Shown here piece by piece: positions 29,627-33,105 of a DNA stretch of 64,000 nucleotides. Numbering within the stretch: the first letter of the stretch is position 1; each line of letters starts with the position of its first letter. This DNA is from a virus. Taxonomy: Duplodnaviria > Heunggongvirae > Uroviricota > Caudoviricetes. The stretch is taken from IMG/VR virus record IMGVR_UViG_2740892427_000001; one strand, given 5' to 3'. Made by a program: the position numbers and the translations under genes. The notes beneath the pieces are model-generated. The model was given only the letters and a program-made list of their open reading frames with translations. It had not been told where the DNA came from and made no database searches.

Positions 29627-30271
29627 TTAAAACGTCTCAGTGGGCTTTTTACGCGCTGCGTTTATGCTTATGACGCCAGCTTTTGGACGTGGGTCAACAA
29701 GGTTAAGCTCTTCTTCACTGTGGTATTCGAGGTCGAACTCACGTTTTACATGTCTGATGTAGATTGCGGTGAGCAGGCTATCTTTGGTCAGGAAGTGTCC
29801 GTAGGATTTGCGGATCACTTCTTCTACCTTCTCGATTTTCTCACCACCCATACAGAGATGATTAAACCGGCTGTGTTTCCGCAACATTTCGTCTACTGGG
29901 CCTGAGTAAACCTTGTCTACTTTCCCAAAACGGATGATTTTCCCTGTGTCTGCGGATACAAGGCAAATCAGCTTGTCTGGTGATAAACGATCTTGCCACG
30001 TCACACCTGAACGGAGTGTGTTGAAGTAGGGTGCATCCAATCCGATGATCGGTTTACGAAATGCGAGCAATGGAACGTACCTGATGCAACTGTTTAAATG
30101 AAAATTCACACCAGCCTTATCAAGTTTAATTCTGGTTTCGTAGATCGGGCACTTCGCCGCTATACCGCAGATGTCACAAAGCAACTTCTGCTTATTCAGG
30201 TTGGAATTTGATTCGATAGTGTAGGAGCCGTCCTCAAGACGACGAACCCAGCGCGTGCGTTTTAGATCCAT
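29627..30271 (-). CDS. hypothetical protein adjacent to replication origin
   Basis: 214 aa ORF. Confidence 0.5.
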   Translation of the reverse strand: MDLKRTRWVRRLEDGSYTIESNSNLNKQKLLCDICGIAAKCPIYETRIKLDKAGVNFHLNSCIRYVPLLAFRKPIIGLDAPYFNTLRSGVTWQDRLSPDKLICLVSADTGKIIRFGKVDKVYSGPVDEMLRKHSRFNHLCMGGEKIEKVEEVIRKSYGHFLTKDSLLTAIYIRHVKREFDLEYHSEEELNLVDPRPKAGVISINAARKKPTETF

Positions 30272-30358
30272 AATCGTTTTTTCAGTAGTTATTGGCCGAT
30301 GCTACGATAACTCATTAGGCATACCTTAATCTGCATTTGCCTGTTTTACTTATCCCAG

Positions 30359-30806
30359 TTATCCACTGGATAGATCCAAATAAGAGATCCCAAGTAAGAT
30401 CAAATAGAAGATCCAAAGAGATCCCCGATCGCCTCTAGCCGTTGCGGTTACTGGTCTGAAAGGGTGTTGCCATCCACTATGGAGAGCAAAGAAACCTCTG
30501 TAGAGAGCTGAATAACCGCTATGAAGAGTAAAACAACCACTCTGGAGAGCTGTATATATCCACTGTAGAGAGTAGAGCACATTGTCTTTTATGGATAACT
30601 TAATGACTTAATTCTTCATTAACATACTGATATACATAGATATATTTTAAACTCTACTCTTAGTCATGATTCTTATGTCCTTAAATATCCACAGAAGAGT
30701 AGAGTTACCTGTTCTTGAAATCCTCTGATTTTATCCACAGGCCCGATCCAGTAATTCAGATCACAAAGAGAACCAAAGAGACCCATAAAGACCCAATAAG
30801 ATCCCC
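30359..30806. promoter_or_regulatory. origin-type region: DnaA boxes and two GATC-rich clusters
   Basis: DnaA box-like sites at 30359..30367, 30685..30693 and perfect TTATCCACA at 30731..30739; GATC clusters at ~30373..30430 and ~30752..30806. Confidence 0.5.
30472..30573 (+). repeat. iteron array A (5 copies, 21-bp period, consensus AWCCRCTNTRGAGAGY)
   Basis: Copies at 30472, 30493, 30514, 30535, 30558. Confidence 0.75.
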
Positions 30807-30851
30807 GCCCACCTCAAACCGTTGCGCCATCTGCCTTCAGACATGATCGAT

Positions 30852-30973
30852 ATCCACTATAGAGAGCGAATAATCCACTATAGGGAGCAAAGCAACCACT
30901 ATAGAGAGGAGAAAAACCACTATAGACGGTAGGATAACCGCTGTGATGAGTGCTACTATCCACTGTAATCAGC
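30852..30973 (+). repeat. iteron array B (6 copies, 21-bp period) immediately upstream of repA
   Basis: Copies at 30852, 30873, 30894, 30915, 30936, 30958. Confidence 0.8.
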
Positions 30974-31013
30974 AAAGGCCACCAAAGCCGTCGAATAACA
31001 AGAGACATTTGGA

Positions 31014-32069
31014 ATGAGCGAAAACGGCAATAAAAACATAGCGATCGTTGAAGCATTTTCAGAAACAGATAAAAAGACAGGCGAAGTTGTTACGTTGGTT
31101 CCTAACACTAATAACACTGTTCAGCCTGTTGCTTTGATGCGTCTGGGCCTCTTCGTTCCGACGCTGAAATCGACATCCAGAGGAAGAAAGGGGCAAATGG
31201 TCTCTATGGATGCCTCTGCTGAACTCAAACAGCTGTCTCTGGCAAAAGCCGAAGGGTACGAAGACATAAGGATCTCTGGCCTTCGGCTTGATATGGATAA
31301 CGACTTTAAAACGTGGGTGGGAATAATCCACGCGTTTGCCAAACACAAGGTCGTTGGCGATACTGTCACGTTGCCGTTCGTTGAGTTTGTAAGGCTGTGT
31401 GGCATTCCGACCGCCAGGTCATCAGCGAAGTTACGCAAACGCCTGGACAGTTCGCTAAGCCGTATTGCCACAAATACCATCTCGTTCCGTAGCAAAGGCT
31501 CTGATGAGTTTTACGTAACGCATCTTGTGCAAACGGCAAAATATAGTGTCAAGCACGATACGGTCGAACTGAAAGCAGATCCCAAGATTTTCGAACTCTA
31601 CCAGTTCGACAAAAAGGTTCTTCTGCAACTCCGGGCTATAAACGAACTCTCAAGAAAAGAATCCGCTCAGGCGCTTTATACTTTTATTGAAAGTTTGCCG
31701 CCTGATCCGGCACCAATATCACTAGCTCGTTTACGCGCCAGACTTAATCTGACAAGTCGCACTATTACTCAGAATGCGACGGTAAGAAAGGCTATGGAAC
31801 AGCTGCGAGAGATAGGATATCTCGATTACACGGAAGTTAAGCGCGGAAACTCGGTCTACTTCATCATCCACTATAGGCGGCCAAAGTTACGCCAGGCACA
31901 AATATCAACAAAAATCGATAATGATGAGACGGAATATAGCCTCCCAGATGAGAATCAAGATGACATTATCGACGTTGTGCCTGACGAAAAAGAAGGCAAA
32001 ATGGTCATGTTGAGTAAAGAAGAACTGGCGCTTCTCGAAGAGTTGCGCAAGGCAAAGACTCGCAAATAG
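31014..32069 (+). CDS. repA: P1/RepFIB-type replication initiator RepA
   Basis: Blocks [51 protein letters not shown] match P1 RepA from memory; flanked by iterons. Confidence 0.85.
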
Positions 32070-32071
32070 CC

Positions 32072-32555
32072 CAACCACTGTAGTTAGTAGTAAGGCTCAC
32101 TATCCACTGTAGTGAGCCTTACTTATATCTGTAATTCGCTATCCACTATAGTGAGTATCGTTATCTGTTGATAACCACTGTAGGCAGTAGAATGCAAATA
32201 CTGAATTAAATGTTAGTGATCACTAACACTGATGAAACAAGGGCTGCGAGGTTAGTGGTCACTGGGTATCTTGGAAAATTTACTGTCTATAGTGGTTGTT
32301 GTCGCCCTCATCTTTGAGCGTATCCACTGTGGCGAGTGGATATCCACTGAAAACAGCAAAGGCTTACTCACCATAGTGGATACCCGCTGGACATCTCACT
32401 CCAATACTCACCATAGTGGTTGTTTGATGCGAATGAAAGGCTGTCTACTCGCTACAGTGGTTAGCAGATATGTAGGAAGAGAGGACTGCAGACCACAGTG
32501 GATAATGAGCTGATACGAATGCGGTGAGCTGGCTACTCACCGCAGTGGTTGGTGC
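32072..32555. repeat. iteron array C downstream of repA (~11 copies, both orientations; incA-like)
   Basis: Repeated CCACTGTAG/CACTATAGTG-type units; also palindrome GTTAGTGATCACTAAC at ~32212..32227. Confidence 0.7.
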
Positions 32556-32557
32556 TA

Positions 32558-32770
32558 TTAGTGTATTTTCTTCAACAGGCCCCAAAGTGTTCCGGCTTTT
32601 GTAGTCAGTTTTCCTGTTTCTGGATCGTACATACGCCATTCACGCCGCTGGTGGACGATATACCCATCTTCACGTTCCAGACGCTCAAGAATGCCAGGCT
32701 GCTTGAAACCCTTAGCACGCCAGTAGCCGCTTGTTTTCTCGATTTCCAGACCTGCCAGTGTTAATGCCAT
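32558..32770 (-). CDS. small hypothetical protein
   Basis: 70 aa ORF. Confidence 0.4.
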   Translation of the reverse strand: MALTLAGLEIEKTSGYWRAKGFKQPGILERLEREDGYIVHQRREWRMYDPETGKLTTKAGTLWGLLKKIH

Positions 32771-33105
32771 TATCCAACCTCCTTGCAGTCATCGAAAAGG
32801 TAGCTTTGCTGAGAAGCGTGAACGCCATAGAAGCCCTTGTATTTGTTGTATACGAAGTGGTCTTCTCCGACGCCGGTTAATTTGCCATTACGATTTGTGA
32901 GATATGGGGATGACAACACTCGATCGTCACGCACAACATAGAACTGGTCGCCGCTGTCTACGACCATCGCTCCATATGGTGCTTTTATGACGTCGGTAAG
33001 AGCGCCATTCTTAACGTCGGCTACAGACATTTCACACTGATAAACAGTGGTGTCGGCCACAACGATCGAGGAAAGGAACAACAGAGCGAATGGGATGGCC
33101 TTCAT
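32770..33105 (-). CDS. secreted hypothetical protein
   Basis: N-terminal signal peptide MKAIPFALLFLSSIVVA. Confidence 0.5.
   Translation of the reverse strand: MKAIPFALLFLSSIVVADTTVYQCEMSVADVKNGALTDVIKAPYGAMVVDSGDQFYVVRDDRVLSSPYLTNRNGKLTGVGEDHFVYNKYKGFYGVHASQQSYLFDDCKEVG

Follow-up and report, generated by a model that had tools for sequence, protein, structure and literature searches.

A tandemly duplicated origin-like unit upstream of repA in the P1/RepFIB-type replicon of an SSU5/pLF82-type phage-plasmid

The viral DNA analysed here, a stretch of 64,000 nucleotides (nt) from IMG/VR virus record IMGVR_UViG_2740892427_000001 (hereafter the window, meaning this whole stretch), holds at positions 30350-32550 the module by which a phage-plasmid of the SSU5/pLF82 (Cyrano) type replicates as a plasmid, an iteron-controlled, low-copy replicon of the P1/RepFIB family that uses theta replication. 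We found that the initiator gene repA is preceded by two paralogous origin-like modules in tandem, a distal unit A and a repA-proximal unit B, where P1 and classical IncFIB plasmids have one. This two-unit layout is the normal arrangement throughout an entire RepA clade and not a peculiarity of the window element. We establish how both units are built, their homology and age, their distribution across the phylogeny and the selective constraint on them, and propose with moderate confidence that they may have become subfunctionalised, unit A serving as the initiating origin and unit B as the promoter/operator of repA and an extra RepA-binding array.

Two origin-like units upstream of repA

Iterons were located by a repeat search, by a pattern scan (A[TA]CCNCTNT[AG]G) and by a 17-nt weight matrix with a threshold of at least 12 bits, and the sites show the motif A[TA]CCACT[AG]T[AG]G[ATC]GAG. 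The matrix returned 24 sites within 30300-32600 and one in the remaining 61.7 kb, and the shuffled region held a mean of 0.5 sites even at a lower cut-off of 8 bits; though the matrix was trained on 22 of the 24 sites, the untrained pattern scan gave the same concentration. The sites form four groups, with five at 30472-30574, six at 30852-30974, one inside repA (31866) and 12 at 32073-32550, the first two groups belonging to units A and B, respectively (Table 1).

Both units hold all modules of a P1-like origin in the same order, namely DnaA box(es), GATC (Dam) heptamers, a linker and phased iterons. No GATC cluster in the window is as dense as that of unit A (6 sites per 60 nt versus 0.27 expected), while unit B keeps GATC in part of its heptamer register only, where three slots read GAACC (30770), GACCC (30780) and GACCC (30790), and has a further GATC at 30845. 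When the cores of DnaA boxes and GATC sites were compared with that of P1 oriR, unit A was identical at 69 of 76 positions (91%) and unit B at 48 of 62 (77%), and the P1-like core of unit A stands out given that the initiators are only 48% identical. Among relatives, a DnaA box occupies the left-end position of unit A in every two-unit locus, and most two-unit loci also have a minus-strand DnaA box 3' of the distal iterons. Unit B itself varies in size: in the SSU5/pLF82 group it is larger by one iteron (21 nt, 30852-30872) and one heptamer (12 nt, 30760-30771) than in the Rahnella, Erwinia and Pantoea lineages, which have five iterons there.

The only long open reading frame of 30350-32550 is repA, whose product matches the Pfam families Rep3_N (PF01051; 1.3e-10, 42.2 bits, cut-off 22.4) and Rep3_C (PF21205; 1.1e-4, 22.8 bits, cut-off 21.1), which are the two winged-helix domains (WH1 and WH2) of the initiators of iteron plasmids. 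RepA shares 99.7% identity with that of Cyrano and 91% with those of SSU5 and Yersinia pestis pMT1. For more distant proteins the identity is 76% (from a Rahnella plasmid), about 70% (from Pantoea plasmids), 61-65% (classical IncFIB RepA) and 48% (P1 RepA).

A sequence-only reading of this region had called it a P1/RepFIB-type replicon with six iterons upstream of repA, about 11 downstream iterons in mixed orientation and, further out, a second unit comprising a DnaA-box-like site, a GATC cluster and five iterons. The homology of the Rep_3 RepA and the annotated layout of P1 bear out the replicon type, the six upstream iterons lie at 30852-30974, all elements are where that reading had put them, and the downstream iterons are indeed of mixed orientation but number 12. 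Of the features that define the P1/RepFIB type, the region has a Rep_3 initiator, iterons overlapping a putative promoter and a downstream array, and the combination of DnaA box and GATC heptamers is complete in unit A and partial in unit B.

Spread and age of the two-unit layout

Units A and B align from end to end with 66% identity over ~229 nt, and their local alignment score lies far above dinucleotide shuffles (z=21, and z=10 for the left half, which contains no iterons), so that the likeness goes beyond chance. The positions of iterons, GATC clusters and DnaA boxes were then determined in 88 loci, comprising classical relatives and 80 loci on one-genome-per-species contigs with RepA 62-92% identical, with the iteron matrix re-estimated for each locus. 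Two upstream iteron blocks of about five iterons each were present in 56 of the 88 loci, and a single upstream block in 29, which were classical IncFIB replicons and a Pantoea group whose contigs are for the most part very large and likely represent the large Pantoea plasmid. The matrix failed in three loci, P1, for which a single block is annotated, and two Photorhabdus loci, which fall inside the two-block clade and show no iterons by matrix, yet have DnaA-box segments duplicated 248 bp apart. In a neighbour-joining tree of RepA, the two-block loci form one clade with the single-block Pantoea group as sister group; classical IncFIB and P1 branch outside it. The clade includes SSU5, pHCM2 and Y. 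pestis pMT1 as well as plasmids of Rahnella, Pantoea, Erwinia and Xenorhabdus, spans several enterobacterial families, and contains both phage-plasmids and conjugative plasmids.

Closer to the window, 64 plasmid records carry this repA allele (at least 95% identity) and 64 carry unit A with the spacer (at least 90%), the two sets having been compared by number and not record by record, and no variant with a deletion of unit A was found among plasmids with this repA allele. The sequence-only reading had named absence of unit A from close relatives as one observation that would speak against it and had asked for a comparison with RepFIB replicons; unit A is present throughout the close relatives and in SSU5, pHCM2 and pMT1, and the comparison separates single-unit classical IncFIB from the two-unit clade of the window.

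In an alignment of eight lineages, unit A pairs with unit A and unit B with unit B. Identity in the left half is 73% between A units and 68% between A and B, and that of the iterons is 74% between B units and 66% between A and B. Within a plasmid, A and B are about as similar as they are between lineages, and not more so; concerted evolution or gene conversion between the units was rejected for want of any such excess. These data fit a single ancient tandem duplication at the base of the RepA clade without later homogenisation, because the two-unit loci make up one RepA clade, the sister group and outgroups have single units, and orthologous units are slightly closer to each other than paralogous ones. 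The old duplication suggested by the sequence-only reading is therefore upheld, with true paralogues across the clade and a single unit in the outgroups.

Table 1. Positions of replicon features and flanking genes in the window
Feature	Position	Strand or direction	Details
ASCH-domain protein gene	29627-30271	-	Cyrano annotation; flanks the replicon; without Pfam match here
Unit A	30350-30598		Two abutting DnaA boxes, six GATC, five iterons in phase, inverted DnaA box
Unit A tandem DnaA boxes	30350-30367	+	Abutting boxes TTATCCCAG and TTATCCACT; string TTATCCACTGGATAGATCCAA identical in P1 oriR
Unit A GATC (Dam) sites	30373, 30386, 30398, 30410, 30420, 30427 (cluster 30373-30430)		AGATCC-type heptamers; 6 sites in 58 nt
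Unit A G+C-rich linker	30431-30471		From heptamers to iterons; length conserved, sequence weakly (31-53% between lineages)
Unit A iterons	30472, 30493, 30514, 30535, 30558 (to 30574)	+	Five, direct; spacing 21, 21, 21, 23; 19-26 bits
Unit A closing DnaA box	30590-30598	-	Inverted, TTATCCATA; ATAAC invariant in the eight-lineage alignment
Inter-unit spacer	30599-30730		A+T-rich; includes DnaA-like box ATATCCACA at 30685
Sigma-70-like site	30619-30646	towards repA	TTAACA-16-TATATT, 10/12 positions, best match of the region; in spacer
Unit B	30731-30974		One DnaA box, heptamer cluster, linker, six iterons
Unit B DnaA box	30731-30739	+	Perfect, TTATCCACA; sequence scan and eight-lineage alignment
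Unit B heptamer cluster	30745-30806		GATC kept at 30745, 30759, 30800
Unit B iterons	30852, 30873, 30894, 30915, 30936, 30958 (to 30974)	+	Six, direct; spacing 21, 21, 21, 21, 22
Putative repA promoter	30951-30959	+	Extended -10 TGcTACTAT; lies between iterons five and six of unit B
repA	31014-32069	+	Rep_3-family initiator, 351 amino acids; ATG start
Downstream control array	32073-32550	both	incA-like; 12 iterons, six direct and six inverted, irregular spacing
Downstream direct iterons	32073, 32102, 32141, 32173, 32322, 32342 (weak)	+	Pattern and matrix scans
Downstream inverted iterons	32281, 32365, 32405, 32446, 32487, 32534	-	Pattern and matrix scans
P1 Cra-like small protein gene	32558-32770	-	Cyrano annotation; flanks the downstream iterons

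Selective constraint on both units

As a yardstick of constraint we used the fourfold degenerate sites of repA together with the inter-unit spacer, whose rate of evolution is close to neutral, its identity to SSU5 nearly equalling that of the fourfold sites (Table 2). At the distance of Rahnella and Pantoea the fourfold sites are saturated, and the four functional segments of the two units still retain 59-74% identity. Across the eight aligned lineages the iteron cores of both units are invariant, as are five GATCC of unit A and GATC slots 1, 2 and 5 of unit B, and slots 3 and 4 of unit B are non-GATC in almost all lineages. Judged by these comparisons, both units are under purifying selection and neither is decaying into a relic. 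That unit B has lost some of its Dam sites is an old and conserved condition.

Table 2. Identity of replicon segments between the window and its relatives
Segment	Window vs SSU5	Window vs Rahnella/Pantoea
Fourfold degenerate sites of repA	64%	33-36%
Inter-unit spacer	65%	35-46%
Linkers		34-53%
Unit A DnaA/GATC part	76%	66-71%
Unit A iterons	84%	60-63%
Unit B DnaA/GATC part	94%	59-68%
Unit B iterons	90%	70-74%

Possible division of labour between the units

We propose that an ancestral P1-like module (DnaA box(es), Dam heptamers, G+C-rich linker and five phased iterons) duplicated once in tandem, and that both copies have been retained by selection and have diverged in role. RepA and DnaA would most likely open the DNA at unit A, with initiation there under Dam/SeqA control, and unit B would most likely act mainly as the operator for RepA autorepression and as an additional RepA-binding array. 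RepA bound at unit B would repress its own gene, and unit B together with the 12 downstream iterons would probably pair (handcuff) with the origin, thereby limiting copy number. The firing unit, the promoter and the handcuffing are features that we infer from conservation, position and analogy with related replicons.

Unit A, in which each element of the experimentally mapped P1 oriR is retained, is favoured as the origin because of its P1-like core, the richness of the distal block in GATC, and its DnaA boxes at both ends, like those of P1 oriR; the 200 nt before the distal iteron block hold at least five GATC in 54 of the 56 two-block loci, compared with 0-6 before the proximal block. Unit B is marked as the operator by its extended -10: the motif TG.TA.TAT is invariant in 8/8 lineages, whereas the other gaps between iterons vary, and it lies where the -10 of PrepA is annotated within P1 incC, which would place the repA promoter within unit B. 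For P1, the GATC heptamers and their methylation are said (Abeles, Brendler and Austin; Chattoraj) to be needed for oriR function, with the heptamers as the opening site, and the same groups reportedly found that a promoter within incC gives autorepression and that incA iterons pair, lowering copy number. The downstream array of the window is the counterpart of P1 incA and of RepFIB iterons E-K. In the classical FIB replicon, the downstream iterons alone displace a resident replicon and are the controlling set, which is consistent with pairing between downstream and origin iterons (PMC11983097). The sequence-only reading had treated unit A as the additional origin-like unit; the duplication stands, but A is the more P1-like copy and B the diverged one, so that the roles were probably inverted.

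Several points weigh against this assignment. Relative to repA, unit B sits at the position of P1 oriR (DnaA box at -283 versus -277 in P1; iterons at -162..-56 versus -160..-57), it is at least as conserved as unit A, and many Pantoea lineages keep a DnaA box and 4-5 GATC in it; unit B may still fire, alone or alongside unit A. The requirement for GATC heptamers is carried over from P1 and might not apply to this RepA, and the putative promoter was called from conservation and position. An alternative that we consider unlikely is that unit B is the working origin, with iterons and promoter coinciding as in P1, and that unit A is an auxiliary negative-control array or a reserve origin, akin to P1 incA or the additional iterons found upstream in RK2 oriV, and would lower copy number by titration and handcuffing. 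Besides the P1 oriR coordinates of unit B, its better conservation between the window and SSU5 (90-94% versus 76-84% for unit A) and its perfect DnaA box with three invariant GATC speak for this possibility. A pure control array, however, would need neither tandem and closing DnaA boxes nor 5-6 invariant GATC heptamers, yet unit A has them clade-wide; the P1 origin core is also closer to unit A than to unit B, and the central heptamers of unit B are without GATC in nearly all lineages.

Still less likely is that both units are active origins of one RepA, used alternatively, with a Dam/SeqA-sensitive unit A and a less methylation-dependent unit B, an arrangement that would resemble R6K or mini-F ori1/ori2 and might provide robustness across hosts or growth states. 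It would accommodate the presence of all module types, in the same order and under purifying selection, in both units, and the wide range of hosts and of element types in the clade. Against it, the conserved loss of GATC at the same heptamers of unit B and the promoter inside that unit suggest a different role and not redundancy. That unit A is a non-functional relic of duplication, or an artefact of assembly or recent rearrangement, has only its a priori possibility in its favour and is highly improbable, since unit A occurs in 64 closely related plasmids and in every lineage of the clade, and its motifs are invariant beside a saturated spacer and saturated fourfold sites.

Returning to the assignment of the origin to unit A and the operator to unit B, we tentatively suggest, as a possibility short of probable, that the subfunctionalised pair separates a Dam-methylatable, SeqA-sequestrable site (unit A) from a methylation-poor operator and pairing site (unit B). 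If true, the timing of initiation in the cell cycle and the autoregulation of RepA, which share one DNA segment in P1, would be controlled independently, and this could explain the retention of both copies across a low-copy clade that includes pMT1 of Y. pestis and pHCM2 of Salmonella Typhi. The copy number of Cyrano, 5.5 per chromosome in overnight cultures (PMC9928086), does not discriminate between the readings of the roles of the two units.

Comparison with known replicons

Like the replicon of the window, P1 (oriR/incC-repA-incA) has a Rep_3 RepA, tandem DnaA boxes, five AGATCC-type GATC heptamers, five iterons in 21-bp phase, a repA -10 between the last two iterons, and an irregular downstream iteron array (incA, with nine iterons). 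Unlike the window, in which two tandem paralogous modules lie ~380 bp apart, P1 relies on a single upstream module serving as origin and as operator, and its incA is followed by parAB, where the window has a Cra-like gene. Other replicons serve several iteron clusters or origins with one initiator, such as RK2 oriV (5+3+1 iterons), mini-F (ori1/ori2) and R6K (alpha/beta/gamma), and the extra clusters modulate copy number; to our knowledge, these are not complete tandem copies of an origin module with DnaA box, Dam heptamers, linker and iterons. The closest characterised RepA is that of RepFIB of P307/F/pO157, a replicon with a DnaA box, five GATC, five upstream iterons (BCDD'D''), rep and downstream control iterons E-K (PMC11983097). 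It differs from the window in its single upstream module, in iteron sequence and in its CTG start codon (PMC11983097) as opposed to ATG. pLF82/Cyrano, SSU5, pHCM2 and pMT1 have the same replicon in an identical two-unit layout, and the window is a member of this group.

The DnaA/GATC part of unit A (30340-30460) also has matches of ~83% just upstream of rep in hundreds of ~110 kb Klebsiella plasmids (344 Klebsiella records among the matches), and some E. coli (Escherichia coli) plasmids match at ~74-76%. If these plasmids are SSU5-like phage-plasmids with a Rep only 49-51% identical, the part of the origin that host factors recognise would be conserved across different Rep and iteron specificities.

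While the type of replicon is textbook knowledge and this very replicon has hundreds of sequenced examples, a duplicated origin unit in the replicons of pMT1, pHCM2, SSU5 and pLF82 was not found described in full-text literature, the scope of which left out the RepFIB papers of 1989-1993 and the pMT1 papers of 1998; the second complete origin-like module and its conservation may thus have been mentioned before. The gain is incremental. The replicon maintains a widespread family of phage-plasmids including pMT1 and pHCM2, and it offers a clean natural case of a non-coding replication origin that duplicated and diverged. Knowing which unit fires and which regulates is needed for building vectors, for interpreting copy-number mutants, and for curing or incompatibility cassettes, which have already been designed for classical FIB replicons (PMC11983097).

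The element and its neighbourhood

The 2.3 kb of replicon DNA is 99.2% identical to that of Escherichia phage Cyrano, which is the phage-plasmid pLF82 of E. coli LF82, and 99.8% identical to that of many ~110 kb plasmids of E. coli, E. albertii and Shigella. Identity is 83-84% to the Salmonella phage SSU5 and to pHCM2 of S. Typhi CT18, which MOB-suite types as IncFIB, and ~83% to pMT1, with Y. pestis plasmids accounting for 63 records among the matches. Among 5426 complete E. coli genomes the replicon was present in 129, plasmid-borne every time. Resistance genes have been reported in some members of the SSU5/pLF82-type phage-plasmid family. The window, Cyrano and SSU5 share as gene neighbours an SbcCD-like nuclease, the ASCH-domain protein and the Cra-like protein, the last of which takes the place 3' of the downstream iterons that parAB has in P1.

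Spacer, repA-internal site and downstream array

Between the two units, G+C content falls to 20-25% at 30590-30680. The spacer was rejected as an unwinding element of unit A, as its low G+C is not conserved and the locus of Erwiniaceae bacterium CAU 1747 has G-rich runs there. The sigma-70-like site within the spacer was not taken as the repA promoter because the surrounding sequence evolves at about the neutral rate. An Rfam search of 30000-32800 gave no match at E <=1, and a structured RNA was accordingly not assigned in that interval.

The single iteron-like site inside repA (ATCCACTATAGGCGGCC, 31866-31882, 14.6 bits) encodes the conserved peptide I-H-Y-R-R-P. We regard it as a coding coincidence, not conserved as an iteron, because the synonymous positions are free to vary and do so among relatives.

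All relatives that were mapped carry equivalent downstream arrays, with 22 matrix matches in SSU5 and 17 in pHCM2 compared with 12 in the window. In the gap between the four direct iterons at 32073-32189 and the rest of the downstream array lies the perfect palindrome TTAGTGATCACTAA, which contains GATC, together with a degenerate copy 39 nt away (32212-32225 and 32251-32264). The SSU5/pHCM2/pMT1 group also has the degenerate copy; the perfect form is shared with Cyrano alone, and two Pantoea plasmids have close variants of it. The palindrome may be bound by another protein; with matches in only 10 of 86 loci it was rejected as a family-wide element. Two further loci suggest that the number of iteron arrays in the family may vary more widely, namely that of Cedecea neteri, with an extra block of eight inverted iteron matches at -1097 to -959 relative to repA, and that of a Tolumonas metagenome-assembled genome, with five scattered upstream iteron blocks.

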